A DNA stretch of 32,000 nt, taken from the NCBI RefSeq assembly GCF_000025945.1, contig NC_006138.1, positions 630,001 through 662,000 on the forward strand, written 5' to 3'. The stretch's first letter is position 1. Each line of letters starts with the position of its first letter. The translations under genes and the position numbers were made by a program. Below the pieces are notes generated by a model. That model was not told the DNA's origin and did no database searches. It worked only from the letters and a program-made list of their open reading frames with translations. Below are positions 786 through 19,137 of the stretch, one piece after another. This DNA is from Desulfotalea psychrophila LSv54 (GTDB lineage Bacteria; Desulfobacterota; Desulfobulbia; Desulfobulbales; Desulfocapsaceae).

Positions 786-1880
786 ATGGCAGACACGGTA
801 AACACAACTATGAATCCAAAGCTTAATCGGCGTGGATTCCTGAAAGGATGTACGATGGTCGCAGCCGCATTGGGGCTTTCCGATGCGATGATTCCCAAAT
901 TGGTAGAAGCCGCCTCTTCGGGCCAAAGACCACGGGTTATCTGGCTCCACTTCCAAGAATGCACAGGATGTACCGAAAGTCTCCTCCGGGCATCTCACCC
1001 CGATCTCGCCCGTTTAATCCTTGACGTTATCTCCCTTGATTACCACGAAACGGTTATGGCAGCAGCCGGTTATCAGGCCGAGGCTAACCTGCACGACACC
1101 GTTGATAACCACCCCTTCATCCTTATTGTTGAAGGGGCTATCCCAGTAAAAGACAATGGAATTTACTGTAAAATCGGCGGTAGAACAGCACTGGAAATTC
1201 TTGGTGAGGTTGCACCGAAGGCCACGGCGATCATTGCCATTGGTACCTGTGCCACTTCCGGTGGTATCCAGGCCGCATCTCCCAACCCCACCGGAGCCGT
1301 TGGCGTTGAGGACCTTCCTGAGTTGACAGGCAATGTACCCATTGTCAACATCCCGGGATGCCCACCAAACCCCGTTAATCTATTAGGTACAATCCTTTAT
1401 TATCTTACCTTCAAGAGACTTCCTGCTCTCGATAGCCAAAAAAGACCTCTCTTTGCCTACGGACGAAGAATTCACGATCAATGTGAACGCCGTGGCCACT
1501 TTGACGAGGGTCGTTTTGCTGAAAAGTTCGGTGATAAGTTTCACCAGATGGGCTATTGCCTCTACAAGGTCGGCTGTAAAGGCCCTGAGACCTTCGCTAA
1601 CTGTCCAACAGCACGCTTTAACGATGTTGGTGTCTGGCCAGTAAGCATTGGCCATGGTTGCATCGGTTGTACCGAGAAAAATTTCTGGGATACCATGACT
1701 CCGTTCTACGAAAGATTACCCAACGTAAAGATCCCCGGCACCGGTATCGTGGCCGATGCAGATAAGATCGGCAAGGTGCTGGTTGGTGCTACTGCCGTCG
1801 GTGTTGCAGCCCACGCCGCAATCGGAATTGGCAAACGCCTTATCAAGGGTAAGCCGAAAGAGAAGGAAGACAAGGAGTAG
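786..1880 (+). CDS. [NiFe] hydrogenase small subunit, Tat-exported, with C-terminal membrane anchor
   Basis: Strong RBS AGGAGG 6 nt upstream. Twin-arginine signal NRRGFLKGCTMVAAALG. Fe-S ligand motifs FQECTGCTES, GTCATSGG, GCPPNP, CLYKVGCKGP, GHGCIGC. Hydrophobic C-terminal helix VLVGATAVGVAAHAAIGIG. Confidence 0.95.
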   Translation: MADTVNTTMNPKLNRRGFLKGCTMVAAALGLSDAMIPKLVEAASSGQRPRVIWLHFQECTGCTESLLRASHPDLARLILDVISLDYHETVMAAAGYQAEANLHDTVDNHPFILIVEGAIPVKDNGIYCKIGGRTALEILGEVAPKATAIIAIGTCATSGGIQAASPNPTGAVGVEDLPELTGNVPIVNIPGCPPNPVNLLGTILYYLTFKRLPALDSQKRPLFAYGRRIHDQCERRGHFDEGRFAEKFGDKFHQMGYCLYKVGCKGPETFANCPTARFNDVGVWPVSIGHGCIGCTEKNFWDTMTPFYERLPNVKIPGTGIVADADKIGKVLVGATAVGVAAHAAIGIGKRLIKGKPKEKEDKE

Positions 1881-1959
1881 GGTCTTTTTAAGAATCAATA
1901 TACCCGCCAGGAGCGATACTCCCGGCATGGTGTTCATATAATTTTCGGAGGTTTTACGT

Positions 1960-3660: not shown

Positions 3661-3718
3661 CAGGAGACTTTTCACCCAAACTTTTTTTATCCGGTAACAC
3701 CATATGGAGGTAAACCAA

Positions 3719-4363
3719 ATGGCATTATATGAAAAAAAATATTGTTGGAGTCTGTTGCTCCGCATATGGCACTGGACGTTCGCATTATCGATTGTTGCAC
3801 TAGTCATCACTGGCTTTTATATTCACTTCCCCTGGACCAACACCCTGATAGAGGGAAGCGCCAGCTGGCCCATGGCCCGGGCCAGATTTATCCACTTTGT
3901 CGCAGGCTATGCCTTTTCCTGTGCCATTTTTCTCCGAGCCTACCTGTACATTTTTGGTAATACTCAGGAACGGATAAGCGACATACTACCAATCAACAAG
4001 AGAAACATCAAAAACCTAGGCGAAACGCTCTTACTGTACACCTATACCACCGATGAGCATAACGGGCGTTTTGGTCACAATGTCTTGGCTGGAAGCTCTT
4101 ATCTGCTCACCTTTTGTGCAGCAATTGCCATGATCGGCACGGGATTCTTCCTCCTCTTTCCAGAGGTGGGATTTATTTCAAGTTGGGGCGGAGCTCTCTT
4201 CCAAACCCAGGCAACGGCTCGCTTCGTCCATCACATTATAATGTGGTGGTTTATGATCTTTGCTGTCATCCATCTCTACCTCTGTATATGGAATGATATT
4301 CGCTTCCCGGAAGGCTTGATCTCTTCAATCTTCACGGGCGTAAAATTCACCCATAAGAAGTAG
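3719..4363 (+). CDS. Ni/Fe-hydrogenase b-type cytochrome subunit (HyaC/HydC-like membrane anchor)
   Basis: Four predicted TM helices with conserved His positions (RIWHW, FIHF, VHHIIMWW). It sits immediately after the large subunit. The ORF opens at 3704, but the ATG at 3719 has GGAGG (3706-3710) at good spacing. Confidence 0.85.
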   Translation: MALYEKKYCWSLLLRIWHWTFALSIVALVITGFYIHFPWTNTLIEGSASWPMARARFIHFVAGYAFSCAIFLRAYLYIFGNTQERISDILPINKRNIKNLGETLLLYTYTTDEHNGRFGHNVLAGSSYLLTFCAAIAMIGTGFFLLFPEVGFISSWGGALFQTQATARFVHHIIMWWFMIFAVIHLYLCIWNDIRFPEGLISSIFTGVKFTHKK

Positions 4364-4366
4364 AAC

Positions 4367-6715: not shown

Positions 6716-6944
6716 TCCCGATGACTTTACAACCAATCAAATCGCAACGGTGGATGTCGACGGTATAAGCAAAGAGATTCGCCTTGATATAGTAGATCAC
6801 TGGCCCAGTATAGGTGACTATCTCATCATCCATGCAGGCTTTGCCATCCACAGCCTTGAACCAAAGGAGGCAGAAAGGAACCTGGAATTGCTCCGCGAAC
6901 TCGCAGCAAGCACCCCAGACGAACTCCTCTACAAAATACCATGA
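6672..6944 (+). CDS. hypC: Hydrogenase assembly chaperone HypC/HupF
   Basis: 90 aa with the hallmark MCLAIP N-terminus (Cys2). RBS AGGAGG upstream. Overlaps the hypF 3' end by 44 nt and hypD by ATGA. Confidence 0.9.
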   Translation: MCLAIPMRVTKVEGDPDDFTTNQIATVDVDGISKEIRLDIVDHWPSIGDYLIIHAGFAIHSLEPKEAERNLELLRELAASTPDELLYKIP

Positions 6945-8029
6945 AACATATTGACGAATATCGAGACGCCAAGCTCGCCAAACCACTGGTCGCCGAGCTC
7001 AGAAGGTCAGTAACCAAGCCCCTGCGCATAATGGAAGTCTGTGGCTCCCACACCATGTCAATTTTTCGCAACGGTATCCGTTCAATCCTACCCGAGGGAA
7101 TGGAGTTGCTGTCGGGCCCCGGATGTCCCGTTTGCGTTACCTCTGCCGCCCATATGGATGCCTTTATCTCCATAGCCGAAAGAGATGGGGTACGGGTCGC
7201 CATCTTCGGTGATCTCTTCCGGGTACCGGGAAGCCAAGGGTCGCTAGCCAACGCCAGTTCCCGCGGGGCCAAGGTAGACATTGTCTACTCACCCATGGAC
7301 GCCCTGGAAATTGCCAAGAACAATCCAGACGAACTGGTGGTCTTTCTCGGCGTTGGTTTTGAAACAACCACCCCGACAATTGCCGCCACCATCATGGCGG
7401 CCAAGATACAAAAGATTAAGAATTTTGCTGTTTTTTCCACCCAAAAAACAATGCCTGCCCCCCTGATTGCCCTGCTTCAGGACCCCGAACTCAAAATCGA
7501 CGGTCTGCTCTGCCCCGGCCATGTTTCTGCCATTATCGGCTCAGAGGTCTACGAACCCCTGGCCCGGGACTATAATCTTGCCTGTGTGGTTGCCGGTTTT
7601 GAAACCGCTGACATCCTTGGCAGCCTCATCCAACTGGCCAGACAGGTAAACGCAGGCGAGTTCAAGGTAGAAAACTGCTACAACAGGGTAGTATGCAAAG
7701 ATGGCAATCCACGTGCACGAGCCATGGTCGAACGCATCTTTGAGCCCTGCGATATGCAGTGGCGCGGCCTTGGCATGATTCCGGAAAGTGGTTTGAAAAT
7801 CCGGGAAGAATATGGTGAGTTTGATGCAGAGAGACGTTTAGAGATAGAGCTAACAGAAGTAGCGGAGCCCAAGGGTTGTCTCTGTGGAGAAATACTTAAG
7901 GGCCAGACCATCCCCCCACGCTGCCCTCTCTTCAACAAAGGTTGTACGCCAATGAACCCGGTGGGTCCCTGCATGGTTAGTAGCGAAGGCACATGTGCCG
8001 CCTATTACAAATATGGCCAGGACCTGTAG
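6941..8029 (+). CDS. hypD: Hydrogenase maturation Fe-S protein HypD
   Basis: 362 aa with motifs GPGCPVCVT, GFETTTPT and LLCPGHVSAIIG, and a C-terminal Cys cluster. The start overlaps the hypC stop (ATGA). Confidence 0.95.
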   Translation: MKHIDEYRDAKLAKPLVAELRRSVTKPLRIMEVCGSHTMSIFRNGIRSILPEGMELLSGPGCPVCVTSAAHMDAFISIAERDGVRVAIFGDLFRVPGSQGSLANASSRGAKVDIVYSPMDALEIAKNNPDELVVFLGVGFETTTPTIAATIMAAKIQKIKNFAVFSTQKTMPAPLIALLQDPELKIDGLLCPGHVSAIIGSEVYEPLARDYNLACVVAGFETADILGSLIQLARQVNAGEFKVENCYNRVVCKDGNPRARAMVERIFEPCDMQWRGLGMIPESGLKIREEYGEFDAERRLEIELTEVAEPKGCLCGEILKGQTIPPRCPLFNKGCTPMNPVGPCMVSSEGTCAAYYKYGQDL

Positions 8030-8060
8030 CCCTGGGCTAAAAATATCAAAGAGAGAAAAT

Positions 8061-9077
8061 ATGTCCGATAAGAAAGTACTTCTCGACCACGGCAGTGGTG
8101 GCCTTGCCAGCCAGGAACTTATTGAAAACCTGTTTATTAAACATCTTGACAATCCCATTCTCCGTAATCTGGAAGACAGCGCTATTCTGGAAAACAAACC
8201 TGGCAATATTGCCTTTACCACGGACAGTTATGTGGTTGACCCACTCTTTTTCCCCGGTGGCGATATCGGCAAACTGGCCGTCCATGGTACCATCAACGAC
8301 CTGGCCATGCGGGGCGCAGAACCACAGGGACTCAGCCTGGGACTGATCCTGGAAGAGGGCTTTTCCCTCGATGAACTCGAACGGGTAATCATCTCCGTGG
8401 CCGAGGCCTGCCGCGAGGCAGATGTCTATGTGGTCACCGGTGACACCAAGGTGGTTCCCAGAGGCAAGGCCGACAAGATATTTATCAACACCGCAGGCGT
8501 TGGTATTGTCGATCCTAAGCTGCAAATTTCGTCAAAAAAAGCACGAGCTGGGGATAGTATCATTCTCTCCGGTAGCATGGGCGACCATGGTATCACCATC
8601 ATGAGTAAGCAGGCGGGAATCGCCATTGATGGCAACCTCCGAAGCGACACCATGGCCCTGCACAAGATGGTGGCAAAGCTCTTAGCCGAATTGCCTGCCG
8701 GTAGCATCCACACCCTGCGTGACCCGACCCGGGGTGGAGTGGCAACTACCCTCAATGAAATTGCTGGCAACAGTAAGCTTGAAATCGAGCTCATTGAAGA
8801 GTCTCTCCCCATAAGGGCAAACGTTCGGGCAGCCTGTGAAATGCTGGGACTTGACCCGCTCTATCTTGCCAATGAGGGAAAATGCCTCATTATTGTCTCC
8901 CCCGAGCAGACAGAGCTAGCCCTGCAAATTCTCCACAAGACAAAAGAGGGTCAGGAGGCTGTTGTCATTGGCAGCCTCAAAGAGGGCAAAGCTGGCCGCG
9001 TATTGGTAACAACACCAATCGGTGGGGCCAGGGTTGTTACGCCACTCCACGGCGAGCCTCTCCCCAGAATTTGCTAA
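8061..9077 (+). CDS. hypE: Hydrogenase maturation carbamoyl dehydratase HypE
   Basis: AIR-synthase-like sequence ending in the diagnostic C-terminal PRIC. The ORF opens at 7995, but the ATG at 8061 (MSDKKVLLDHGSGG) matches the usual HypE N-terminus and does not overlap hypD. Confidence 0.93.
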   Translation: MSDKKVLLDHGSGGLASQELIENLFIKHLDNPILRNLEDSAILENKPGNIAFTTDSYVVDPLFFPGGDIGKLAVHGTINDLAMRGAEPQGLSLGLILEEGFSLDELERVIISVAEACREADVYVVTGDTKVVPRGKADKIFINTAGVGIVDPKLQISSKKARAGDSIILSGSMGDHGITIMSKQAGIAIDGNLRSDTMALHKMVAKLLAELPAGSIHTLRDPTRGGVATTLNEIAGNSKLEIELIEESLPIRANVRAACEMLGLDPLYLANEGKCLIIVSPEQTELALQILHKTKEGQEAVVIGSLKEGKAGRVLVTTPIGGARVVTPLHGEPLPRIC

Positions 9078-9107
9078 CAGCGATAAAACACTATAAATAG
9101 GGATCCT

Positions 9108-9590
9108 ATGAAAAAAATTGGTATCGCCGGTATCGGCAACTTGATTTTGCGAGATGAAGGTTTTGGTGTTCATACGGTTAAATATCTCATAGATAACTAT
9201 ATCTTCCCCGATAATGTCGAGATCCAGGACATAGGCACTGCCGGCATCTTTATGGCTCCTTTCTTGGAAGAGTGCGACCCGGTTTTTGTCATTGATGTGG
9301 TTGATATCGAAGGAGAACCAGGATCCTTTCACTATTATGATCTCGGCGATGTAAAGGCGGGGAAATTCCAAACCCGCATGTCCCCGCACCAGCTGGGACT
9401 TCTCGAAATACTTGAGGTATGCAAGCTCCGTGATGCAGCCCCGGAACATATAGAATTTTATACAGTTATCCCCAGTGAGCTCACCGAGAGTGTGGAACTG
9501 TCAGAGATAGTCGCTGGACGTATGGTAGAGGTTGCCGAAATGATCGTTACCCGCCTTACGGAAATGGGCGTCAACGTGGAAAAACGTTAA
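9108..9590 (+). CDS. Hydrogenase maturation endopeptidase (HyaD/HybD/HupD family)
   Basis: 160 aa. N-terminal IGIAGIGNLILRDEGFGVH resembles the GxGNxxxxDDGxG motif of large-subunit C-terminal processing proteases. Context lies inside the hyp cluster. Confidence 0.88.
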   Translation: MKKIGIAGIGNLILRDEGFGVHTVKYLIDNYIFPDNVEIQDIGTAGIFMAPFLEECDPVFVIDVVDIEGEPGSFHYYDLGDVKAGKFQTRMSPHQLGLLEILEVCKLRDAAPEHIEFYTVIPSELTESVELSEIVAGRMVEVAEMIVTRLTEMGVNVEKR

Positions 9591-9603
9591 CCAGGGGTTA
9601 AAC

Positions 9604-9951
9604 ATGCATGAAATGTCCCTTGTCCAAAATCTTTTTGAGCAACTCAGAGATCTTGCCAAAGAGAATAGGGCAGAAAAAATAATCACTGTAACCATGTCAA
9701 TAGGACCACTTGCCGGAGTAGTGGTAGACTCCTTTCAATTTGGTTTTGATGTTCTCTCCGCCGAAGAACCACTTTGCAGCGGAGCTGAACTCAAGATAGA
9801 AATTCCCCCTGTTACCTTTACCTGTACAGACTGTGGTTTTGCCATGGAGTCCACCGAAAAGAGCCTGGACTGTTGCCAAAAGTGTGGTGAACTCTTTTTA
9901 ATTTCAAGCGGCGGAGATGATCTTATCCTTAAACAGGTTGTGATGGAGTAA
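9604..9951 (+). CDS. hypA: Hydrogenase nickel insertion protein HypA
   Basis: 115 aa. MHEMSL N-terminus (Ni site) and two CxxC pairs (CTDCG ... CQKCG) forming the Zn site. Confidence 0.93.
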   Translation: MHEMSLVQNLFEQLRDLAKENRAEKIITVTMSIGPLAGVVVDSFQFGFDVLSAEEPLCSGAELKIEIPPVTFTCTDCGFAMESTEKSLDCCQKCGELFLISSGGDDLILKQVVME

Positions 9952-10035
9952 GCCACAACCCGTTTTTTACTAAATAGACGGCCACCTCCCCCTCTGGAGA
10001 GCTGGCCCTTTACCTTCGATACAAGGAGAAAAAAT

Positions 10036-10800
10036 ATGTGTACCACCTGCGGTTGTCCAAGCCCCTCTGATACTGCCCACTCCCACGATCACGATCACGA
10101 TCATGATCACAGCCACACACACAAAACCGTTGACGTTCATACCAGCCTCTTTGCCGCCAACGACGCCCTGGCCAAGATGAACCGCGAACACTTCAACGAA
10201 ATTGGTGCCGTTGCCCTCAACCTTATAAGCAGCCCGGGCTCCGGAAAAACTACCCTGCTTGAACATACCATCGAAGCCCTCAAGGGTGAGATTAAAATTG
10301 GTGTTATCGAGGGTGATATTGAAACAGAGCGCGATGCAGACCGCATCCGAGCCAAGGGTGTGCCCGTGGTTCAACTGACCACCGGCGGCGCCTGCCATCT
10401 TGATGCGGCCATGACCCATAAGGGATTTCACCGCCTGGAAAAAGAGCCGGGATACGAGACTGTGGATCTGCTCTTCATCGAAAACGTGGGTAACCTTGTA
10501 TGTCCATGTTCCTTTGATCTGGGTGAACATGAGCGGGTGGTACTGGTCTCCGTACCAGAGGGCCCTGACAAACCTGCCAAATACCCCAAGGCATTTACCA
10601 GCTCCGATACCTTTGTCATCACCAAAACAGACCTTCTTCCATACTTTGACTTCCCGGTAGAAGAGGCTCGGGCAGAGGCACTCCACCTCAACCATCATCT
10701 TCGCACAATGGAGCTCTGCGCCACCAAGCAGGACGAAGGTTTTCAACAGTGGCTTGACTACCTGCGTGAACTGGTGGCCAAGAAGAGGGGACTGAAGTAG
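10036..10800 (+). CDS. hypB: Hydrogenase nickel incorporation GTPase HypB
   Basis: N-terminal CxxCGC (MCTTCGC), His-rich tract HSHDHDHDHDHSHTH, P-loop SPGSGKTTLL, and an ENVGNLVCP motif. Confidence 0.95.
   Translation: MCTTCGCPSPSDTAHSHDHDHDHDHSHTHKTVDVHTSLFAANDALAKMNREHFNEIGAVALNLISSPGSGKTTLLEHTIEALKGEIKIGVIEGDIETERDADRIRAKGVPVVQLTTGGACHLDAAMTHKGFHRLEKEPGYETVDLLFIENVGNLVCPCSFDLGEHERVVLVSVPEGPDKPAKYPKAFTSSDTFVITKTDLLPYFDFPVEEARAEALHLNHHLRTMELCATKQDEGFQQWLDYLRELVAKKRGLK
10084..10110 (+). repeat. Hexanucleotide tandem repeat (CACGAT)x3-CATGAT-CAC encoding the (His-Asp)n tract of HypB
   Basis: Read directly: cacgat cacgat cacgat catgat cac. It is in frame within hypB. Confidence 0.9.
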
Positions 10801-10824
10801 CATTTCCCCTCTCTCTGCCAGCAA

Positions 10825-10866
10825 AAAAGAGGCCCGAGCGAAGAGTTCTTCGCCCGGGCCCTCTCT
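10825..10866. terminator. Bidirectional stem-loop terminator between convergent hypB and the DUF4125-like gene
   Basis: ggcccgagcgaaga (10831-10844) pairs with tcttcgcccgggcc (10847-10860), with one mismatch. The stem is extendable by agag/ctct. An A-run lies upstream and a T-rich stretch downstream, so it can serve both strands. Confidence 0.6.
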
Positions 10867-10895
10867 TTCACAGAGCTCAGAGTTTAAAAAATTCC

Positions 10896-11483
10896 CTATT
10901 GCTTCTTCTCCGCTGCATCGGCTGATGCATACCCCTGTTCCCGGGCTAAATGGTCATAGATTTCCTCGGACATACTCCTCCCCTCGGCCTGATACCTCTG
11001 CACATCCTTATAGAGAAGCTTCAGAGTCTCTTCAGCGTAAGTCTCCAGCTCCGCCTGGACATAGGTGGAAAAGCTTGCCCAATCAAGGCCCTGCTCCTCA
11101 CCAGCAAGTTGTCGTCCCCGAGACATCATCCGCGGATGCTTGTCAATAAAGGCCCTCTGCCAGGCCAGTTGTGCCGATACTATCTTGGCAATAAAAGGAC
11201 TCTCGTTCTCAGAGGGAATGAGATTTCCCATCCGTGCATATTTATAGATCATCAGGTTACGGCCAATATGATGGGCCCGACCAAGATCTCTCAGATAACT
11301 CTGTAAAGTTGCCTCCGACCAGACAGCGAGTTGCGAGGTTCTGTGCAGGCGAAAATCAGCTGAGATCTCGCCAACGGATGGTAGGGATTTTTCCAGAGGG
11401 TTTTTCCCTCCCGAATCATTCACCCGAATAAACATCTGCCACTCAAAGGCCAAGACCTCTTCAACAATTTTTTCCCTATCCAT
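10896..11483 (-). CDS. Hypothetical helical protein, DUF4125-like (family assignment from memory)
   Basis: The ATG at 11483 has GGAGG 7 nt upstream and overlaps the stop of the upstream gene as TAATG. About 195 aa, no signal peptide, helix-rich composition. The ORF track start at 11498 is a TTG. Confidence 0.7.
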   Translation of the reverse strand: MDREKIVEEVLAFEWQMFIRVNDSGGKNPLEKSLPSVGEISADFRLHRTSQLAVWSEATLQSYLRDLGRAHHIGRNLMIYKYARMGNLIPSENESPFIAKIVSAQLAWQRAFIDKHPRMMSRGRQLAGEEQGLDWASFSTYVQAELETYAEETLKLLYKDVQRYQAEGRSMSEEIYDHLAREQGYASADAAEKKQ

Positions 11484-12430
11484 TATCGTCCTCCCCAAAA
11501 TCCGGCGCGAAATTCAGCGTCCTCTATCCCTGCCAAAATCAGTGGTACCTGATCCAGCAAAAAAGGCGTCTTTTCCCTAATGAGCCCCTGCTCATAAAAC
11601 TCTAATATAAGCCGCTGACAAATTCTCTCAATGATATTCTGCTGACAGACCCATGTATCTTCTCCACCTGTCATCTCTGCATTGGAGCAAAGAAGATCTC
11701 TTAAAAGTGGTGCCACCTCCACACCAAGAAGGGGCAGACGTTCAAGACCTCGAAGCAGCCACTTAAAATAGGGGGCATAGGCCCTGTTGAGCAGATAGAT
11801 CAGCTGCATCGCCTCGGTACAAAACTGGACCTTAGCATGCGCCATCACATAGGGATCTGAACGCATTATACCTCGCTGCCAATTATACTGCCCCGCTTGG
11901 CCAGCGCGCATGCAACCATCTGCCACCATCTTCAAACGAATATCTTCGGGGTAATAGGCAAGCAGGGCATCCCGCCAGGCAGTAAAGGTACCCAGAGGAT
12001 CAACAAAAACCTCGCCATTGGTGCAGAGGCTAAGATGAGAGGAGGGAATATTCCACTGGCCAAGGGTCCGGGGCGGAGCGGTCAAGCCTGTGTAACGTCT
12101 GTAAAACGAGGAGATAGACATGGCGCCCACCCGCCCATCTTCCCCCTGGCTGACCTGTCGGGGAGAAAAACCTGCAAAAGACTGCGGCAACTGGCAGTAG
12201 ACTGCCTGCAGGGCCTCACCATGAAGGGCAAAATCTTCATCGGTCAACCAGAGACAAAAAGATGGGCCCCAATCATGGTCCCGGGAAAACTGATCATCAA
12301 AGCCAAGACACTCGGAACCCGGGCCCACCAAGCCCACCGCCACCCGATCCATCAGAACTCCAAACCGATCGTAAAGAACATCTCGACCACACTCCTCATA
12401 GTACTTTCTACTCAAGATCAAACCATCCAT
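11483..12430 (-). CDS. Nucleotidyltransferase-like protein, DUF4037-like (family assignment from memory)
   Basis: 315 aa. RBS GGAGG immediately upstream of the ATG at 12430. N-terminal GPGSECLGFDDQFSRDHDWGP resembles the pol-beta-superfamily GS-x(9-10)-DxD nucleotidyltransferase signature. Confidence 0.7.
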   Translation of the reverse strand: MDGLILSRKYYEECGRDVLYDRFGVLMDRVAVGLVGPGSECLGFDDQFSRDHDWGPSFCLWLTDEDFALHGEALQAVYCQLPQSFAGFSPRQVSQGEDGRVGAMSISSFYRRYTGLTAPPRTLGQWNIPSSHLSLCTNGEVFVDPLGTFTAWRDALLAYYPEDIRLKMVADGCMRAGQAGQYNWQRGIMRSDPYVMAHAKVQFCTEAMQLIYLLNRAYAPYFKWLLRGLERLPLLGVEVAPLLRDLLCSNAEMTGGEDTWVCQQNIIERICQRLILEFYEQGLIREKTPFLLDQVPLILAGIEDAEFRAGFWGGR

Positions 12431-12457
12431 ATCCCCTCCATAAGAGCAAAAGCTATA

Positions 12458-12486
12458 ATTAGCTAATGCACCATAATTTCTATCAA
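12458..12486 (-). promoter_or_regulatory. Candidate sigma70 promoter for the DUF4037/DUF4125 pair (TTGATA-17-GCTAAT on the minus strand)
   Basis: Minus-strand TTGATA (12481-12486), a 17-nt spacer, then GCTAAT (12458-12463), about 28 nt upstream of the ATG at 12430. Pattern match only. Confidence 0.3.
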
Positions 12487-12503
12487 AACAGCCATATTTA
12501 CCC

Positions 12504-12532
12504 TTGACCTGAATAACACTTCTTTGTAGTTT
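12504..12532 (+). promoter_or_regulatory. Candidate sigma70 promoter for the lipoprotein operon (TTGACC-17-TAGTTT)
   Basis: TTGACC at 12504-12509, a 17-nt spacer, then TAGTTT at 12527-12532, about 77 nt upstream of the ATG at 12609. Pattern match only. Confidence 0.3.
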
Positions 12533-12608
12533 AACCTAACGTCAATATTCCTGCTCGGGCCACTTGCCACAGTAAGCCAGATGCCACAATTACAATGAGG
12601 TTTTAAAG

Positions 12609-14045
12609 ATGATGATCTGTATGAAAAGACTCCCATGGTACATTATAGCACTCTATCTAGCTATTAGCCTCGGTGGCTGTGGGGCAACTCTGAATCAAAA
12701 AAAGCTTGGGACATTCAACCAACATCTACAGACAGGCCGACACCAGCAGGCCCTTGACCTGGCCATGAATGCAGGCGACTTTGATCAAGAGGACAGAGGA
12801 ACAGATCTCCTCTGGGATCTGCAGGCAGGAAACGTCCTCACCCTTCTCGGCCAGTTTAAGAGAAGCAACTACGTCTATGATCAGGCAGAGCTCTTGATGA
12901 AAGATAAGGATACCGAAGGAATGGCGACGAAGGGTGTCGGCAAAATCGGCTCCATGTTGATCAATAACAGTGTCAATGGCTACCAGCAAACGGTATACGA
13001 TTCAGTAATGATTAATACCTATAAGGGTTTAAACGACATCCTCCTCCATGACTGGCAGAATGCCCGCGTCGAATTCAATAGGGCGGCCGATCGACAGCGA
13101 CGAGCAAAAGAACACTTTAAAAAGAAGATTGCCGAGCAGGAAAAACGTCTAGCCAAGGAAGAGAAAAAAAGCAGGCGACAAAAGGCAGGACCTAGCTGGA
13201 ATATGCGAGGTGCCAGTGCAGAAATCGACAAGAACTTTACCGAATTGAATGGTTGGAAGGCCTATGGCGACTACATCAACCCATACACCGACTATCTTCA
13301 TGGCCTCTTCTTTATGCTGGCGGCAAGCGGCAATAGCAGATCTGACTACGACAAGGCTGTTTATTCATTCAAACGGGTGGCTGGCACCCATGGCCGCAAC
13401 AAGGTCATTAAAAAGGACCTCTATCTTGCTCGCAAGCTCCAGTCGGGTCAGTGGAGAAAAAACAGGCTCAGCCCACGAGTATGGGTTATCTTTGAAAATG
13501 GTCTGGCCCCTACCGTCGACGAAATTATTATTCCGGTACCTCTCTTTCTGGTTACCAAGGATGTTGACTATGTGCAAATTGCCCTGCCCAAAATTGTCGA
13601 GCAACCGGGTGCCTACCCCAACCTGCAGGTATCAGCGGCAGGAAAGAAACTTGGCTCTACCCAGCAAATCGCCAGCATAGACCGAGTGGTAGAGAGTGAA
13701 TTCAAAAAGGAATATCCCTATAAGGTGACCGAGGCCCTGATCAGTGCCGCCATAAAGGGAACCATCCAGTATGTGGCTGAAAAAGAGGCGGGGGATCTCG
13801 GCAGCATCCTCAGCATCGTCTACCAGGCAGCCACCACCCATGCGGATACCAGAAGCTGGACGGCCCTGCCCAAAGAGGTACAGGCCCTACAAATCAAAAA
13901 GCCCAAATGTAACAGCATTACCCTCAGTGCGAAGGGAATGCTACAGCCAGTGAAGGTGGCACTTCCAAAAAACCGTTTCAGCATTGTTCATGTTCGGGCA
14001 GCAGGAGTAGGTAGCCAACCAACTGTACAGGTTGTTGGCTTTTAA
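12609..14045 (+). CDS. Large lipoprotein of unknown function, COG3014-like (Campylobacter Cj0089-like)
   Basis: Signal peptide with lipobox (LAISLGGC). GAGG RBS 8 nt upstream of 12609, with an alternative ATG at 12621. About 475 aa, with a highly basic predicted coiled segment (RQRRAKEHFKKKIAEQEKRLAKEEKKSRRQK). Size and position match the first gene of the COG3014/YcfL/LpoB-like trio as I recall it. Confidence 0.75.
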   Translation: MMICMKRLPWYIIALYLAISLGGCGATLNQKKLGTFNQHLQTGRHQQALDLAMNAGDFDQEDRGTDLLWDLQAGNVLTLLGQFKRSNYVYDQAELLMKDKDTEGMATKGVGKIGSMLINNSVNGYQQTVYDSVMINTYKGLNDILLHDWQNARVEFNRAADRQRRAKEHFKKKIAEQEKRLAKEEKKSRRQKAGPSWNMRGASAEIDKNFTELNGWKAYGDYINPYTDYLHGLFFMLAASGNSRSDYDKAVYSFKRVAGTHGRNKVIKKDLYLARKLQSGQWRKNRLSPRVWVIFENGLAPTVDEIIIPVPLFLVTKDVDYVQIALPKIVEQPGAYPNLQVSAAGKKLGSTQQIASIDRVVESEFKKEYPYKVTEALISAAIKGTIQYVAEKEAGDLGSILSIVYQAATTHADTRSWTALPKEVQALQIKKPKCNSITLSAKGMLQPVKVALPKNRFSIVHVRAAGVGSQPTVQVVGF

Positions 14046-14069
14046 TAGGGTAGATACAGGAGACAGACA

Positions 14070-14456
14070 ATGTTACAACGTATAATATTTATTCTCGCGC
14101 TCATTCTCGCCCCGCAGCTAGGCAGTAGCGCTATCATCTCTTCCTCTCATAGCACAGCCACCTCTTCTCTGCAGCTGGGGCCAAAGGCGGCAAAATATAT
14201 AGAGGTCAGCGAAATACGGGGCGGTCGCCTGCCAAGCGGGCTTTTCCGGGCCCGCTTTATCGGAGACAGCACCAGTAGCTTTAAAAAAGAGATTAAATAT
14301 CGCTTTGTCTGGCTGGATTGCTCAGGATTTGAACTCAGCGGTATAACCAGTACCTGGCAGAGCATCAGGCTCAGCCCTAAGGATGAAGTACGCCTGCAAT
14401 CAGTGGCCACCAGTCCCCGGGCAAGTAACTTTCAGGTTATCATCAAAGAACTCTAG
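14070..14456 (+). CDS. YcfL-like periplasmic protein (DUF1425/COG5633-like)
   Basis: 128 aa. Cleavable signal peptide (ILALILAPQLGSSA) with no lipobox Cys. The YRFVWLDCSGFEL motif resembles the YRF-W-D-G-E core of the YcfL family. RBS AGGAG upstream. Confidence 0.7.
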   Translation: MLQRIIFILALILAPQLGSSAIISSSHSTATSSLQLGPKAAKYIEVSEIRGGRLPSGLFRARFIGDSTSSFKKEIKYRFVWLDCSGFELSGITSTWQSIRLSPKDEVRLQSVATSPRASNFQVIIKEL

Positions 14457-14492
14457 AAAACCCTTTAAATATCCCCCAACAGGAGAAGTAGA

Positions 14493-15104
14493 ATGCGTTC
14501 ATATCTTTATCTTATTTTTGCCATCGCTATCAGCCTTGGTCTCACCGGTTGTGTCCAACAAAAAACAGTACGACTTCAGGCGGACGACCTTGGTGAACCG
14601 ATGACAACCGGACTCAGCAACCGTGATTTTGAAATTGCTGCCAACCACACCATACAGTCCATGCTCGGCTCCGGTGCCGTTGCCCCGGTCAATGGCAAGA
14701 AAAATATTCTGGTGATTTCTCATATCCTCAATGACACCATGCAACGCATCGACACAGATCAGCTCATTAAAAAGATCCGTATCGCCCTTCTGCAGAGTGG
14801 CATGGTTAAAACCACCACCGCAATCGGCCTCAACGGCGCGGAAGATCGCATGAACGACGCCTATAGCCAATTGGCACGTTCCAAAAGAATCAACAAACGT
14901 ACCCTGCAAAAGCAGAGCCTCACCGCTCCCAACATGAGCCTTTCCGGTAAGATCATCCAACGTAACCAAAGAGTTGACGGCGGTCGCCAGCTGATTGAAT
15001 ACTACTTCCAGCTCACCCTGACCGATCTCAGTGATGGCCTTGGCGTCTGGGAAGGAGAGACTCCTATCCGTAAGCTGGCCAGTAAAGACAGCGTTTCGTG
15101 GTAA
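14493..15104 (+). CDS. LpoB-like lipoprotein (COG3417, penicillin-binding protein activator LpoB family)
   Basis: 203 aa. Canonical lipobox LGLTGC. The C-terminal LSGKIIQRNQRV...YYFQLTLTDLSDGLGVWEGE matches the LpoB/YcfM globular-domain pattern. RBS AGGAGAAG upstream. Confidence 0.8.
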   Translation: MRSYLYLIFAIAISLGLTGCVQQKTVRLQADDLGEPMTTGLSNRDFEIAANHTIQSMLGSGAVAPVNGKKNILVISHILNDTMQRIDTDQLIKKIRIALLQSGMVKTTTAIGLNGAEDRMNDAYSQLARSKRINKRTLQKQSLTAPNMSLSGKIIQRNQRVDGGRQLIEYYFQLTLTDLSDGLGVWEGETPIRKLASKDSVSW

Positions 15105-15115
15105 GGAACCCCTCA

Positions 15116-16507
15116 ATGAAAAAACATATTGCTGCCCTCCTCCTGCTCACAGGCCTCGGATGCACCAGCACCGGCTGGAGCACGGAACAAATGGCATCGA
15201 GCGCAGAGCCCGGCTACCCCACAGATTCCATGGCCACCATGGTTGTGGATGAAGCCGATGCCGAAGCAGGCCAGATGTCTCTGGAAGAATTCGAAAAAAC
15301 CCTGTCCCTGGACAAGGCACGTCTTGAAGATAGTGGTAAATTTTCCTGGGTGGGCTACGCCTACCAGACAGTTTCCGTGGGCAAGGCGCACCCTAACTGG
15401 GGTAAGTCCCGGGTTATTGCCGCTCAAAAGGCCATTATGGCCGCCGAAAACAACTTTGCCAAAGAGTTTGGCCAGAAAATTTCCTCGGAAAAAATCGCTG
15501 CATACTATAACGATGGCAACGAAAAAATCCCCGACTTTGACCCCACGGCAGAAGGCGAAAGCAGTCAGTGGAAACGTATCTACCACAAGCTTACCACCCT
15601 GGCCGAAAGAAAAATTGACCAAAGCCTGGCAGACCTCGGTCTTGATCCAAAAGAGCTTGAACTGATCCCCGAAGAACAGCGCTATCTCAAATTTCGTGAT
15701 GCCTTCAAATCAACCATTAACAGATCGGCAATTGCGGAACTCAGTGGCCTTCTCACCTTCAAAACCTATGAGGGCTTTGACAATGATGGCCAGTATCAAG
15801 TCGGAGTGATGATGGTACTCTCACCCAGGATGAAGCAGCTCGCCTGGGATCTGGCCCGTAGCAAAGGAAACATTGCCCCAGTTGCCGGCAAAGCAGGTTC
15901 CCGACAACTGAACAAAATTGTTACCTCTGAGAATATCAGCCTCATCCCTGATTTTGGGGTAAAAAGGCTCTATGATCGCAATGGCTATCCGGTACTGGTC
16001 TCCTTTGGCCAATGGGCCATCTCAAGCACCGGCGGGAATGGCAAAAAAATATCCCGCAAACGAGCCCACGCCTACAAACAGGCGGAGGCCCAAGCTGACC
16101 AGGCCCTGGCAGAATTTTTAAACTCCCGCATCAACTACTCGGATATGAATGAAAGCGGGGAGGAGAGCAAAAGCGAAGGGGTGGTCGATGAACAGAACTT
16201 CAAGAGCAATGTCGATATCACCTCCATCATCGATATTACCCGTGAAAATTCGGTCAAGAAGAGCAAGGTCAATATTGTTGGTATCCGCGAACTGCGACGC
16301 TGGAGTGCAGTACACCCTCAAAACAACAGTGCCAGAATTGTAGGTGTTATCCGCTACTGGAGCCCGGTTAACGAAAAGCAGATGCGGGCAATTCGTAAAT
16401 GGAAACCAAGTCGTCCCATTGCAGAAAAAAGACAACCCGCTCCCGTCCCCCGCACAACCGGCGGCATACAACAGAGCCAGGAACGTATGAGTCTCGATGA
16501 TTTCTAA
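15116..16507 (+). CDS. Exported (probably lipid-anchored) protein of unknown function with two LPP20-like modules
   Basis: ATG at 15116 with AAGGAA RBS, and signal peptide MKKHIAALLLLTGLGC (non-canonical lipobox). Two similar units: VGYAYQ...RVIAAQKAIMAAENNFAKEF...YQVGVMMVLSP and VLVSFGQ...AYKQAEAQADQALAEFL...RIVGVIRYWSP. Confidence 0.7.
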   Translation: MKKHIAALLLLTGLGCTSTGWSTEQMASSAEPGYPTDSMATMVVDEADAEAGQMSLEEFEKTLSLDKARLEDSGKFSWVGYAYQTVSVGKAHPNWGKSRVIAAQKAIMAAENNFAKEFGQKISSEKIAAYYNDGNEKIPDFDPTAEGESSQWKRIYHKLTTLAERKIDQSLADLGLDPKELELIPEEQRYLKFRDAFKSTINRSAIAELSGLLTFKTYEGFDNDGQYQVGVMMVLSPRMKQLAWDLARSKGNIAPVAGKAGSRQLNKIVTSENISLIPDFGVKRLYDRNGYPVLVSFGQWAISSTGGNGKKISRKRAHAYKQAEAQADQALAEFLNSRINYSDMNESGEESKSEGVVDEQNFKSNVDITSIIDITRENSVKKSKVNIVGIRELRRWSAVHPQNNSARIVGVIRYWSPVNEKQMRAIRKWKPSRPIAEKRQPAPVPRTTGGIQQSQERMSLDDF

Positions 16508-16563
16508 GAGCCTGAGCGAAATTTTGGCCATCTTATTTTGTAACAGACCCTAAGGAGTTTATT

Positions 16564-17760
16564 ATGCGCCTTTTACTAGCACTACTTCTAATGCTTTCCC
16601 TCTCTGTTTCAGCCCTTGCGGCCCAGAACATCAAAGAGGAAAGCCAGACAGTCACCGGTTATGGCAGCAACCCATCCGCTGCCATCGGTGATGCCCTGGT
16701 GCGGGCCGTAGGTCAGCTTAAGGGGGTAAAGATAGACTCCAAACGGATCTGTTCCCAGCTCTCCCAGGAAAATAGCTATGGGCAGGATGGTGAGTGGCAG
16801 GAAGAGTTCACCAGCAGTGAAAAGGTTCAGCAACTGCTCAAGACAAAAACAAAGGGGCAGCTGGCGGGCTATCAGGTCATTGATGTCCAAGAGGGAGAGA
16901 ACGGCTACGAGGCAAGGGTCGAGGTCAAGTACCATCGTTTCAGCGAACAGGGCTACTCTGCAGATAACCGCAGAAAGCTTGCCGTAGTCCCATTCGCCAC
17001 GGGGAAATCACGTTTTATGCTCCTCGGTGACGCCACCCCGGCCGCCAAGGTGGAGGAAGAGTTTCGCAATCGGCTCATTGACCTCTTTACCCAGTCACGA
17101 CGCCTGAGTATCCTTGATCGCCAGTACGGTGAAGCCTTTGAGACAGAAAAAGACCTCTGGCTGAGCGACGACGCAGCCAGCGGTGAAACGGCACGCCTAG
17201 GCAATGTCCGGGGAGTGGATTACCTGGTGGTCGGCACCATCCGCTCCATATGGAGCAAAAGGTATGTGGAAAAAATTCAACTGACCGGCGAGACCATCTC
17301 TACCTATGCGGGCAAGGCCCAGGTGGACTACAAGATCATCCAGGCGGCAACACGCCAGGTAAAGTGGTCTGACACCATCACGGTTAAATTCAGTGACCGC
17401 AATATCAGGAGAATGCTCTCCCGTTTTGGTTCAAGCCAGGCTGGAATGACCAATGCCATGGCCGAACGGGTTGCACAGGAGGCACTTGCCAACATCTACC
17501 CCATGCGGGTAGTTGGGGTAAAGGGCAAGACCGTCATTATCAATCAGGGAGGCAAGAGCCTGAAAAAGGGTGATAAGCTCCATGTCTACTTCGTAGGCGA
17601 GGAGATGATTGATCCCTATACCAAGGAGTCCCTTGGTCAGCTGGAAGAAAAAATTGCTACAGTGCAGGTGATTCGCCCCACCGCCAAGGTGACCTATACC
17701 AGGGTTATCGCAGGCGATGCGGAACTGATCGAAGCAGGTGCCATTATCCGTCGTAAATAA
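16564..17760 (+). CDS. Secreted CsgG-family-like protein with N-terminal LPP20-like module and C-terminal beta domain
   Basis: Signal peptide MRLLLALLLMLSLSVSALA-AQ with no Cys. The CsgG-like core has KLAVVPFATGKS, FRNRLIDLFTQSRRLSILDRQ and GVDYLVVGTIRS. The C-terminal part MRVVGVKGKTVIINQGGKSLKKGDKLHVY... resembles the small beta domain seen at the end of FlgT/CsgG-like proteins. RBS AAGGAG. Confidence 0.75.
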   Translation: MRLLLALLLMLSLSVSALAAQNIKEESQTVTGYGSNPSAAIGDALVRAVGQLKGVKIDSKRICSQLSQENSYGQDGEWQEEFTSSEKVQQLLKTKTKGQLAGYQVIDVQEGENGYEARVEVKYHRFSEQGYSADNRRKLAVVPFATGKSRFMLLGDATPAAKVEEEFRNRLIDLFTQSRRLSILDRQYGEAFETEKDLWLSDDAASGETARLGNVRGVDYLVVGTIRSIWSKRYVEKIQLTGETISTYAGKAQVDYKIIQAATRQVKWSDTITVKFSDRNIRRMLSRFGSSQAGMTNAMAERVAQEALANIYPMRVVGVKGKTVIINQGGKSLKKGDKLHVYFVGEEMIDPYTKESLGQLEEKIATVQVIRPTAKVTYTRVIAGDAELIEAGAIIRRK

Positions 17761-17765
17761 GAGAA

Positions 17766-17796
17766 GGGGGTTTTAGAGATCATCTCTAAAGCCCCC
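17766..17796. terminator. Bidirectional hairpin between the convergent lipoprotein operon and the yhaM-like gene
   Basis: gggggttttagag (17766-17778), atcat loop, ctctaaagccccc (17784-17796). This is a 13-bp stem with one G-U pair. It starts 6 nt after the stop at 17760 and lies 30 nt from the stop at 17827. Confidence 0.6.
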
Positions 17797-17826
17797 TCCA
17801 GCTGTTACTGCTATTCAATTCCCAAG

Positions 17827-19137
17827 CTACCCTTTTTTGTGCTTAGCCCGCATGATCTTAAGGATAGTCTTATCGGTTGCCACCATCCCGTAGTTGCTCA
17901 AGTCGCCAATATTCTGCACGGTCTGTCTGGTCGAATCGCCAATAATTCCATCGGTATCCTTAACGCTCACCCCCTGCAGAGAAAAAAGGGCCGCCTGCAC
18001 AGCCGCACCCGCTGCCGTATTCAATTTTATGGCACAACCGGCCTTTGCCCCGTCACAGATAACACCGGCAAGATCCTCAAGGATATTCTTTATCGCCCCC
18101 TCCACCTGCTGAAGATCACCGCCGACAAGGTAGGTGATACCAGCCGTAGCTCCGGCCCCGGCTGCAACCGAACAGCCACATACCGCCGACAGCCTGCCCG
18201 TGTGAGCCTTGATATAGGCGGTGATAATATGACTGAGTCCAATGGCCCGCAGCACCGACTCCCGATCGGTTTCAATAAAATCTTTAATGGCCCAGATGGG
18301 AAGAATGGCCGTAAGGCCATGATTGCCGCTACCACCGGAACTCATAGCCGGCAGGTTGACCCCGTCCATCCTGGCATCGGCTGCCGCCGAGGTAAGCATA
18401 CGGGCACTGGTAGTCATATCCTTTACCAACAGCTTCTGCTTGAGCAGACGATCAATGTCCTTACCAATACCAAGACCGCTGCCATGCTTCAAACCATACT
18501 CAGCAAGACGGAGATTATGCTGCACCCCCTCCTCTAAAAAATCCAGATCAGCCTCATCAAGCTCATTGGTGAGATCAAGGATATCTTCCAGGGTAAGACT
18601 TCGTAGCCACTCTTCAAGTTCAGCAAGCTTATTACCCGTGGACATTGCCTCGGTGGCCACCAAACGGGGATCTGCCACCTCTTCACCGTCAAGCATGAGA
18701 CTGACAATATTGGTATGGACATCGGTGATAAGGGATTCTGCCACATGACCGCCACCGCTGATAGTGGTCTTTACATAGAGTCCGGACTCCTCACGCAGGT
18801 CAACCTTAACCCGACCCTCGGCCAAAAAGGCCGAGGCCCGGGCAACCATCTCAGGGCTCAAACTAGACAGAACCTCAAGTTTTCCATAGGCATCACCCCC
18901 AAAGGCACCCAGGGCACTGGCCGTATCAAGTCCCGTCAAACCACCACTGCCAGGAATCACCACGGCAAGTCCATTCTTATAGATATTAGGATCGATAATA
19001 AGATGAATATGGTCAAACTTCAGGCCCGGCAGGAGGGTCGCAGCTGCTGCAGCACCAAGGGCAATGGCAACAGGCTCGGTACAGCCCAGGGCCAGACAAA
19101 CTTCCATCTCAAGAATATTTTTTACGCTAAATTTCAT
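17827..19137 (-). CDS. L-cysteine desulfidase family protein (UPF0597/YhaM-like, serine dehydratase alpha-like)
   Basis: About 436 aa from the ATG at 19137 (MKFSVKNILEMEV...), the usual size for this family. It has the conserved GCTEPVAIALGAA N-terminal motif and Gly/Ala-rich stretches (SGGSGNHG, VCGCSVAAGAG). The ORF track start at 19182 adds 15 unlikely residues. Confidence 0.85.
   Translation of the reverse strand: MKFSVKNILEMEVCLALGCTEPVAIALGAAAAATLLPGLKFDHIHLIIDPNIYKNGLAVVIPGSGGLTGLDTASALGAFGGDAYGKLEVLSSLSPEMVARASAFLAEGRVKVDLREESGLYVKTTISGGGHVAESLITDVHTNIVSLMLDGEEVADPRLVATEAMSTGNKLAELEEWLRSLTLEDILDLTNELDEADLDFLEEGVQHNLRLAEYGLKHGSGLGIGKDIDRLLKQKLLVKDMTTSARMLTSAAADARMDGVNLPAMSSGGSGNHGLTAILPIWAIKDFIETDRESVLRAIGLSHIITAYIKAHTGRLSAVCGCSVAAGAGATAGITYLVGGDLQQVEGAIKNILEDLAGVICDGAKAGCAIKLNTAAGAAVQAALFSLQGVSVKDTDGIIGDSTRQTVQNIGDLSNYGMVATDKTILKIMRAKHKKG

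Follow-up and report, generated by a model that had tools for sequence, protein, structure and literature searches.

A conserved cluster of genes for exported proteins in Desulfotalea psychrophila, with a FlgT-like member, as a possible non-flagellar periplasmic scaffold

We analysed a stretch of 32,000 nucleotides of the Desulfotalea psychrophila LSv54 genome (assembly GCF_000025945.1, contig NC_006138.1, positions 630,001 to 662,000 of the forward strand; hereafter the window, in whose coordinates all positions are given), and in it a run of five co-directional genes at 12609-17760 whose products all carry export signals. These genes, which we call genes 1 to 5, correspond to DP0586 to DP0590; the gene 4 protein is 100% identical to DP0589, and the numbers DP0586 and DP0590 are presumed. 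We find that they belong to a gene cluster whose members stay together across many phyla, without a conserved neighbour, and whose fifth protein has the predicted architecture of FlgT, a ring component of the Vibrio flagellar motor. Our leading hypothesis, which we hold tentatively, is that the cluster encodes a cargo-less periplasmic scaffold held at the outer membrane by a tether, as a non-flagellar equivalent of the H-ring built of FlgT, FlgO and FlgP. The five genes are as follows.

12609..14045, + strand: gene 1 (DP0586), predicted outer-membrane lipoprotein assigned to the COG3014 family, an open reading frame (ORF) of 478 amino acids
14070..14456, + strand: gene 2, small periplasmic protein of the DUF1425/YcfL family, Ig-like beta sandwich, 128 amino acids
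14493..15104, + strand: gene 3, outer-membrane lipoprotein of the LpoB family (PF13036 / TIGR02722), 203 amino acids
15116..16507, + strand: gene 4 (DP0589), periplasmic protein of the DUF6844 family, 463 amino acids from the ATG
16564..17760, + strand: gene 5 (DP0590), predicted FlgT-like, non-lipidated periplasmic protein, 398 amino acids

In the ORF list, consecutive genes are separated by 24, 36, 11 and 56 nt, in exact agreement with an earlier description of this DNA made from its letters alone (below, the sequence-only reading). That description had also named in advance an observation that would speak against its proposal, namely that genes 4 and 5 are never linked to genes 1-3 elsewhere. 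We find the linkage kept across many phyla. A scan with the gene 5 alignment, taking one genome per species, gave 62 loci, which we annotated with profiles of all five proteins; a second set comprised 80 metagenome loci anchored on gene 1, in 37 of which the sequence continued downstream for at least 3.8 kb. In both samples there is a bias in favour of the query's relatives. Nearly all of the 62 gene-5-anchored loci have the order 1-(2)-3-4-5. The complete order 1-2-3-4-5 occurs in Desulfobulbales and other Desulfobacterota, in Marinobacterium, Stutzerimonas, Pseudomonas and Motiliproteus, and in Rhodospirillales, Campylobacterota, Opitutales, Lentisphaeria and Kiritimatiellia; an unclassified metagenome-assembled genome (MAG) of Campylobacterota (L052) has all five genes. 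Gene 2 is missing from an otherwise intact 1-3-4-5 arrangement in Endozoicomonas, Oceanimonas, Oceanisphaera, Kistimonas, Shewanella and Alkalilimnicola. Individual look-ups found all five genes in Stutzerimonas and Azospirillum, and the same order in Chlorobium (Chlorobiota), with a 123-aa ORF replacing gene 4. The cluster thus spans at least seven phyla, including Desulfobacterota, Gamma- and Alphaproteobacteria, Campylobacterota, Verrucomicrobiota, Lentisphaerota, Kiritimatiellia and Chlorobiota. In a few loci the genes are rearranged and still together: two (L040 and L050) have the order g5'-g4-g5-g1-g2-g3, and one from Sedimentisphaerales (L054) has g4-g5-g1-g3. Chance adjacency of unrelated genes, which we considered as an explanation of the run, is rejected on this synteny evidence.

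The 37 gene-1-anchored loci with sufficient downstream sequence divide as follows.

1-2-3-5: 18 loci
all five genes: 12 loci
trio only (1-2-3): 5 loci
1-3-5: 2 loci

Because gene 5 is present in 32 of these 37 loci and gene 4 in 12, we take the common core of the cluster to be 1-(2)-3-5, with gene 4 as a frequent accessory. The sequence-only reading had instead regarded genes 4 and 5 as an extension of the trio in this organism, which these counts contradict; the trio alone does occur, for instance in Desulfocurvibacter africanus. Clustering of the ORFs that flank the gene-5-anchored loci revealed no family that recurs beyond a single genus-level clade, apart from generic ABC-ATPase-type and chemoreceptor-type proteins, and no secretin, pilus or flagellar family that recurs beside the cluster across taxa. 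The module is self-contained, without a conserved cargo or partner gene.

Several observations were made on individual carriers. The two loci with a duplicated gene 5 (L040:6279-12876 and L050:6527-12855) carry, beside strongly diverged genes 1-3, an additional short gene 5 paralogue of 297-316 aa. When gene 5 of D. psychrophila is compared with its counterparts (loci L008-L026, L028, L030 and L034), identity is 51-58% to those in Marinobacterium, Stutzerimonas and Pseudomonas but only about 35-40% to those in other Desulfobacterota such as Desulfococcus, Desulfobacterium and Desulfocapsaceae. This pattern hints that the cluster as a whole has moved laterally between phyla. Some carriers bear odd taxon labels (a MAG labelled Aminobacteriaceae, L007; a MAG labelled Phycisphaeraceae, L022; bins labelled Bacteroidaceae and Anaerovoracaceae, L062 and L067), which fit poorly with their Marinobacterium-type proteins (51-55% identity) or with a Gram-negative envelope module. 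Binning contamination is possible in these, so the phylum count is to be taken with care.

The protein that gives the cluster its likeness to a flagellar ring is that of gene 5. Searched with Foldseek, its AlphaFold2 model (predicted local distance difference test, pLDDT, 80.1) is matched best by FlgT, both on its own (3W1E, E 1.1e-20) and as part of the LPHT ring (8Z5N, E 1.7e-19), each aligned over about 400 columns, whereas TolB, CsgG, PelC, GNA1162 and HpaA match the middle domain only, at E values of about 1e-6 to 1e-5. Three domains can be delimited: an N-terminal one at residues ~22-126, weakly LPP20-like; a middle one at ~137-311 with the fold shared by CsgG, LpoB and TolB-N; and a C-terminal beta barrel of the FlgT_C/TsaP type at 314-397, for which profile comparison with the beta-barrel domains of TsaP (6VE2) gives an E value of 1.5e-9. 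By the model, the protein as a whole is FlgT-like, with three domains (N-M-C); by its N-terminus, it is not lipidated. Among Pfam families, CsgG is matched above its cut-off (26.1 bits against 20.8), over residues 163-293 and only positions 36-169 of the 210 in the profile. LPP20 (16.3 bits, E 0.013, cut-off 25.9) and FlgT_C (13.9 bits, E 0.074, cut-off 27) stay below theirs, and no Pfam match to FlgT_N or FlgT_M was reported for the D. psychrophila protein. Of 42 members of the wider family, 37 match CsgG, 29 LpoB, 11 FlgT_M, 9 FlgT_C, 4 LPP20 (best E 0.002) and 2 FlgO, and the middle part of the family also matches LptE, TolB_N and GNA1162. Since one and the same domain matches LpoB, LptE, FlgT_M, TolB_N, GNA1162 and FlgO, it probably marks a fold group and not a channel. 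An hhalign comparison of the gene 3 family with the gene 5 middle domain gave a probability below 1%, so these two share at most a common fold group, by way of their Pfam cross-matches.

It is against this background that a CsgG-like outer-membrane channel, for secretion or assembly of an unknown substrate, has to be judged. Such a channel would be in keeping with the CsgG match of gene 5 above the cut-off, found in most of the family, and with the Foldseek match to CsgG (E ~1e-6). CsgG, however, is a lipoprotein whose transmembrane beta-hairpins form a 36-stranded barrel in the nonamer, and gene 5 has no lipobox; the CsgG match covers the middle domain only, while the full-length match to FlgT is better by 14 orders of magnitude; the domain also scores with LpoB, LptE, TolB_N, FlgT_M and GNA1162; and no csgE-, csgF-, csgA- or csgB-like gene or conserved substrate gene lies nearby. 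We regard a channel of this kind as highly improbable. Gene 5 shares parts with known ring-formers: the middle domain has the CsgG/PelC/TolB-N fold found in oligomeric rings, and the C-terminal domain has homologues in the beta barrels of TsaP, a ring-forming partner of secretins, but gene 5 lacks the lipid anchor, the curli or Pel genes, the LysM domain of TsaP (by Pfam) and a linked secretin. The sequence-only reading had called gene 5 CsgG-like, and the domain is indeed there, above the cut-off, in the middle of the protein; a CsgG-type channel is nevertheless not what the full-length match to FlgT indicates, and 109 of 112 homologues have no lipobox. Nor did its proposal of an LPP20-like module in gene 5 hold up, the score lying below the Pfam cut-off and the model being matched by only 4 of the 42 members. 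Its closing suggestion was a scaffold or a secretion conduit; the scaffold fits the evidence, and the conduit does not, as there is no lipid anchor, no substrate gene and an architecture that is that of FlgT.

Export signals and C-termini set the five proteins apart from one another. We judged the N-termini of the D. psychrophila proteins by eye and with a regular expression, and counted the lipoboxes of homologues by regular expression. Lipoboxes are present in gene 1 (..ISLGGC) and gene 3 (..GLTGC, its Cys invariant in the family), and a lipobox-like sequence in gene 4 (..LTGLGC); gene 2 begins with a cleavable signal peptide without Cys, and gene 5 with a type I signal peptide that ends ..SALA/AQ, likewise without Cys. 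All five N-termini look like export signals, in line with the claim of the sequence-only reading that every product has a signal peptide or lipobox. Among homologues, a lipobox was counted in 114 of 135 for gene 1, 91 of 107 for gene 2 and 117 of 123 for gene 3, against only 6 of 79 for gene 4 and 3 of 112 for gene 5. On these counts, the usual make-up of the cluster is three lipoproteins (genes 1-3) and two soluble periplasmic proteins (genes 4 and 5). D. psychrophila departs from it twice, with no Cys in gene 2 and a possible lipobox in gene 4.

Two of the families end in a near-invariant aromatic residue (counts over loci L006-L151). Gene 3 ends ..VSW (within 15065-15104), and a C-terminal Trp is found in 112 of 120 homologues, whatever the architecture of the locus. 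Gene 4 has a flexible tail that ends ..DDF (within 16460-16507). Among 78 loci, 74 have a C-terminal Phe, usually as ..DDF, and split ORFs account for two of the four that do not; in the alignment this Phe is invariant, and the tail is preceded by a variable linker of low complexity.

The first three genes had been taken by the sequence-only reading for a COG3014 / YcfL / LpoB-like trio, and profile searches together with the NCBI label bear this out for all three. The assignment of gene 1 to COG3014, a family of lipoproteins of about 450-500 aa encoded 5' of ycfL/lpoB-like genes, seems secure in that the identical protein and many homologues are labelled 'COG3014 family protein' by NCBI, in that conservation of the lipobox Gly-Cys among 42 homologues is 90% or higher, and in that more than 100 loci have the gene in this place, ahead of DUF1425 and LpoB genes; it rests on this label, the lipobox and the gene position. 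No Pfam or NCBIfam model matched the protein, and searches of the PDB, with the single sequence and with the profile alike, came back empty. Its AlphaFold2 model (pLDDT 86.7, predicted template modelling score 0.88) consists of a helical domain resembling tetratricopeptide repeats (TPR) at ~24-280 and a beta domain at 290-478 from which a long helical hairpin is formed by residues 357-409. Invariant Asn, Lys and Arg residues are clustered in the helices at 129-190. Foldseek against the PDB found weak TPR matches only (MamA, NlpI, PilF and LapB, E at least 1.6e-3); because the alignments, of 235-414 columns in a model of 478 residues, are too short to span both domains, we take the modelled beta domain to be without a counterpart in any solved structure.

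Gene 2 is matched by Pfam DUF1425 with 80.8 bits (E 7e-23, cut-off 28.3), and its best match among solved structures is 4GIO, a 'putative lipoprotein' that we take to be C. jejuni Cj0090 (E 1e-5), followed by 3O0L (E 1.2e-4). The gene is absent from several clades. In one Chlorobium strain it is split into two ORFs, which may reflect a pseudogene or an assembly error.

Gene 3 is a member of the LpoB family, with 128.6 bits for Pfam LpoB (PF13036), above the cut-off, and 195.8 bits for NCBIfam TIGR02722 (cut-off 110.6), for which E. coli LpoB itself scores 218. This brings in the most serious alternative to a scaffold, an adaptor or regulator of peptidoglycan enzymes in which gene 3 would act like LpoB on a class A penicillin-binding protein (PBP), gene 1 would dock synthases or hydrolases in the manner of NlpI, CpoB or LpoA, and genes 2, 4 and 5 would be accessory. 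Such an adaptor could overlap with a scaffold. The TIGR02722 score of gene 3 beside that of E. coli LpoB speaks for it, as does the adjacency of ycfL and lpoB in E. coli, where genes 1, 4 and 5 are absent from the locus, and so does the weak likeness of the TPR part of gene 1 to NlpI. Beyond family membership and the adjoining DUF1425 gene, though, the resemblance of gene 3 to E. coli LpoB is slight: the two are 20% identical (BLASTP E 0.69), and the gene 3 family profile reaches E 0.22 only against the LpoB structure 2MII. E. coli LpoB ends ..SQQ, without the C-terminal Trp (pairwise alignment with gene 3), and has a linker of about 55 residues, whereas the tether of gene 3, from the lipid Cys to the start of the conserved globular part, measures about 22 residues here and in 17 homologues, and so would be too short for reaching through the wall as Typas et al. 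describe. Asp106 and Arg111 of E. coli LpoB, presumably the residues needed for binding of PBP1b, align with Ser and Asp in gene 3, in an alignment of low confidence. The cluster has no linked gene for a PBP or a hydrolase. Published work confines both LpoB function and the UB2H docking domain to enterobacteria (PMC3060616), against the spread of the cluster over at least seven phyla. Together, the shortness of the tether, the low identity, the reported confinement of LpoB and UB2H and this wide phyletic spread disfavour a role of gene 3 as a true PBP1b activator. The broader adaptor proposal we consider rather unlikely; still, it stays the main alternative, as wall remodelling, because HP0018, the Helicobacter pylori homologue of gene 1, co-precipitated the wall hydrolases AmiA and MltD (PMC11394524).

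Gene 4 belongs to DUF6844, which it matches with 77.5 bits over residues 154-247 (cut-off 27), as do 44 of 44 aligned members of its family. Its profile matches the crystal structure 4QVR, that of Francisella tularensis FTT_1539c, with an E value of 8e-35 over residues 32-461, and the family counts 710 clusters at 50% identity in a library of representatives. The N-terminal and C-terminal halves align with each other (hhalign probability 94.6%, E 7e-8), so that the protein consists of two homologous modules, an internal duplication. A relationship of gene 4 to LPP20/FlgP, in line with the LPP20-like and CsgG-like modules of which the sequence-only reading held genes 4 and 5 to be built, could not be demonstrated by sequence and profile comparison: none of 44 family members matches LPP20 at E <= 0.05, the gene 4 and gene 5 alignments do not match each other in hhalign, and when the halves of gene 4 are compared with the N-domain of gene 5, the probability stays below 1%. 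In Chlorobium (L003:7614-7985; L004:6607-6986), the 123-aa ORF in the position of gene 4 has no Pfam match. In Marinobacterium aestuariivivens and one MAG (L017:7549-8990; L022:7558-8965) gene 4 is split into two ORFs, which may be pseudogenes or assembly errors.

The system with which the cluster can best be compared is the H-ring of the Vibrio motor. In the near-atomic structure from Vibrio cholerae, soluble FlgT is arranged in a C26 ring, whereas FlgP and FlgO, which are lipoproteins, make up C58 rings with a tether to the outer membrane and dock onto neighbouring subunits by their C-terminal loops (bioRxiv 10.64898/2025.12.02.691832). Like the H-ring, the cluster combines a soluble three-domain protein of FlgT type with small outer-membrane lipoproteins, one of which (gene 3) is in the LpoB/FlgO fold group that, by Pfam cross-matches, includes CsgG; and like FlgP and FlgO with their docking loops, two of its proteins (genes 3 and 4) have conserved C-terminal tails. 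In contrast to the H-ring, no flagellar gene is present in the window or recurrent in the flanks examined, gene 5 going instead with COG3014- and LpoB-family genes; the cluster has no demonstrable FlgP/LPP20 homologue, gene 4 being DUF6844; and its COG3014 and YcfL components have no equivalent in the H-ring.

The same likeness could be taken to mean that the cluster supplies an accessory outer ring to a trans-envelope machine encoded elsewhere, either a type IV pilus or type II secretin, in the manner of TsaP, or a flagellum, in the manner of FlgT. The homology of the gene 5 C-terminal domain to the secretin-associated TsaP and the FlgT-type architecture of the whole protein agree with this, and in Oceanimonas and Oceanisphaera (L033, L037, L039, L043, L044 and L049, ~10100-15500) the genes pilD, coaE, pilC, pilB and a pilin gene, names that we read from translations, stand directly downstream on the opposite strand. 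That neighbourhood, however, is confined to this one clade, with no secretin, pilus or flagellar family recurrent across taxa; gene 5 lacks the LysM domain of TsaP; and the cluster is present in Chlorobium, which to our knowledge lacks flagella. An accessory ring of this kind therefore appears distinctly unlikely.

Single components have been met before in three pathogens. In Campylobacter jejuni, Cj0089-Cj0090-Cj0091 (with HP0018 and HP1457 in H. pylori) represent the COG3014, DUF1425 and LpoB families in the same order as in D. psychrophila; for cj0092 and cj0093, which follow downstream, the annotation says no more than hypothetical or periplasmic. The three genes have been described as a three-gene unit (PMC3100323), and they are co-transcribed. 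Cj0091, which we identify as the LpoB-family member and hence the counterpart of gene 3, resides in the outer membrane, and both adherence and colonisation depend on it (PMC3100323). By the published account, gene 1 is homologous to Cj0089 and HP0018, and deletion of HP0018 leads to hypervesiculation (PMC11394524). In Francisella, FTT1537c-FTT1540c is a small operon of envelope proteins, of which FTT_1539c is homologous to gene 4 along its length; a transposon insertion in FTT1538c, in the same operon, causes mild attenuation (PMC4696196). We found no publication that describes the structure 4QVR in the literature searched.

From these observations on families, folds, export signals, gene linkage, conserved tails and the lack of conserved neighbours, we hypothesize a scaffold assembled as follows. 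The lipoproteins of gene 1 (TPR and beta domains) and gene 3 (LpoB/TolB-N fold, short tether), and in most carriers also that of gene 2 (Ig-like, YcfL), would be anchors in the outer membrane, and would recruit the soluble periplasmic gene 5 protein and, where present, that of gene 4. Gene 5 would form a ring or lattice, its CsgG/TolB-N-like and FlgT_C/TsaP-like domains serving for oligomerisation, while gene 4 (..DDF-COOH) and gene 3 (..VSW-COOH) would dock to partners by their C-terminal aromatic tails, the likely acceptor being either the gene 1 TPR domain or the gene 5 N-domain. Binding of C-terminal peptides is common among TPR domains, as in the Hsp70/90 EEVD and PTS1 systems; because of this and of the invariant Asn/Lys/Arg cluster at 129-190, the TPR domain of gene 1 is a candidate acceptor, which at this point we purely infer. 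The assembly would serve a structural purpose, to keep order in the outer membrane and in its connection with the wall. Such a role would fit the hypervesiculation without HP0018, the outer-membrane location of Cj0091 and its colonisation defect, and the mild attenuation of the FTT1538c insertion.

We stress that several points weigh against such a scaffold. The likeness of gene 5 to FlgT is one of fold and architecture only, with 15% identity and a template modelling score of about 0.3, a low value because the domain orientations differ; the D. psychrophila protein stays below the Pfam thresholds for FlgT_C and LPP20; and no relation of gene 4 to FlgP/LPP20 could be detected. In C. jejuni, Cj0089 was recovered in the inner-membrane fraction (PMC3100323), which is ill-fitting for a gene 1 anchor in the outer membrane, and the recovery of AmiA and MltD with HP0018 points to wall enzymes. 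The phenotypes of the homologues are mild and come from distant organisms. Association of the five proteins and formation of a ring, oligomerisation, docking of the tails and stabilisation of the envelope are the steps that we infer.

The assembly may also be the evolutionary source of the FlgT/FlgO/FlgP H-ring module. A bolder form of this idea holds that a free-standing ring or lattice of H-ring type, its FlgT-like protein held by LpoB-fold and TPR lipoproteins through aromatic tails, is the ancestral context both of enterobacterial LpoB, with a longer linker and the Trp tail lost, and of Vibrio-type FlgT; we put this forward as a doubtful, if attractive, extension.

At the locus itself, two features bound the cluster.

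12431..12608, no strand assigned: presumed promoter region, the divergent intergenic region between the DUF4037 gene (- strand) and gene 1
17765..17797, no strand assigned: hairpin with a 15-bp stem between convergent genes, likely a bidirectional terminator

The divergent neighbour on the - strand, a DUF4037 gene at 11483-12430, leaves a region of 178 nt, 12431-12608, before gene 1. The divergent gene and the region are as the sequence-only reading had them; the promoter that it placed there was not seen in a scan for the sigma-70 consensus, which gave no promoter-like site in 12431-12608, the count of sites in the region not exceeding that of shuffles. The promoter of the operon would nonetheless be expected within this region, and genes 1-5 presumably lie on a single transcript, as judged from spacing and conserved synteny only, since the scan gave no site there. 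A sigma-70-like site (TTGTAA, 16 nt, TATTAT) at 16538-16565, in the 56-nt gap 5' of gene 5, could be an internal promoter; here too the count is not above that of shuffles. A GAGG ribosome-binding site lies 12 nt 5' of the gene 1 ATG at 12609. Gene 1 could start at 12609 (MMICMKRL) or at 12621 (MKRL); the NCBI protein has 474 aa, so the later start is used there. The frame of gene 4 is open from a GTG at 15098 (469 aa), and we took the ATG at 15116 as its start.

Downstream, the hairpin that the sequence-only reading had placed at 17766-17796 as the end of the operon proves to be a genuine fold (17765-17797; -26.3 kcal/mol, z = -4.2, with none of 200 shuffles folding equally well), though it has no U-tract; because no run of T follows, it is missing from the output of the terminator scan, whose count, like that of the sigma-70 scan, does not exceed that of shuffles. 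It likely serves as a bidirectional terminator that closes the operon. The convergent gene beyond it is of the serine dehydratase alpha-chain family (PF03313). An Rfam search of 12000-18200 found no RNA family, and the GC content of the operon region is not unusual. By Pfam and NCBIfam scans, none of the five proteins contains an enzyme domain, in agreement with the earlier statement that none has a recognisable enzyme motif, and there is no curli, flagellar or PBP gene anywhere in the 32-kb window; the flanks of homologous loci likewise agree with the claim that no such gene, and no cargo gene, is nearby. The rest of the window holds genes for a NiFe hydrogenase with its hyp maturation proteins, a TRAP transporter, a two-component system and metabolic enzymes. 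The hydrogenase genes (small subunit, large subunit, cytochrome b), followed by hypF, hypD, hypE, a gene for a HycI-type protease and hypB, occupy 786-10800, 5' of the operon, and an overlapping DUF4125/DUF4037 pair of unknown function at 10896-12430 (- strand) diverges from it.

The C. jejuni trio, HP0018, the structure of the gene 4 family, LpoB and FlgT were known already; what is added here is their union as a module of four to five genes. In the literature that we searched on DUF6844, COG3014 and FlgT-like proteins, neither such a module nor a FlgT-like protein outside flagella is described, though subscription journals may hold earlier work. Its components have been met separately and always without a mechanism: Cj0091 through colonisation and adherence, HP0018 through hypervesiculation, 4QVR as an orphan structure and, likewise, the Francisella FTT1537c-1540c operon through mild attenuation and immunogenicity. 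A single conserved envelope module of four to five genes, whose function would be as proposed above, turns these scattered observations in three pathogens into one testable hypothesis, and the near-invariant C-terminal Phe and Trp offer a simple handle for point mutation. If the hypothesis is true, E. coli LpoB and Vibrio FlgT would be specialised offshoots of a wider module that serves neither the flagellum nor PBP1b.

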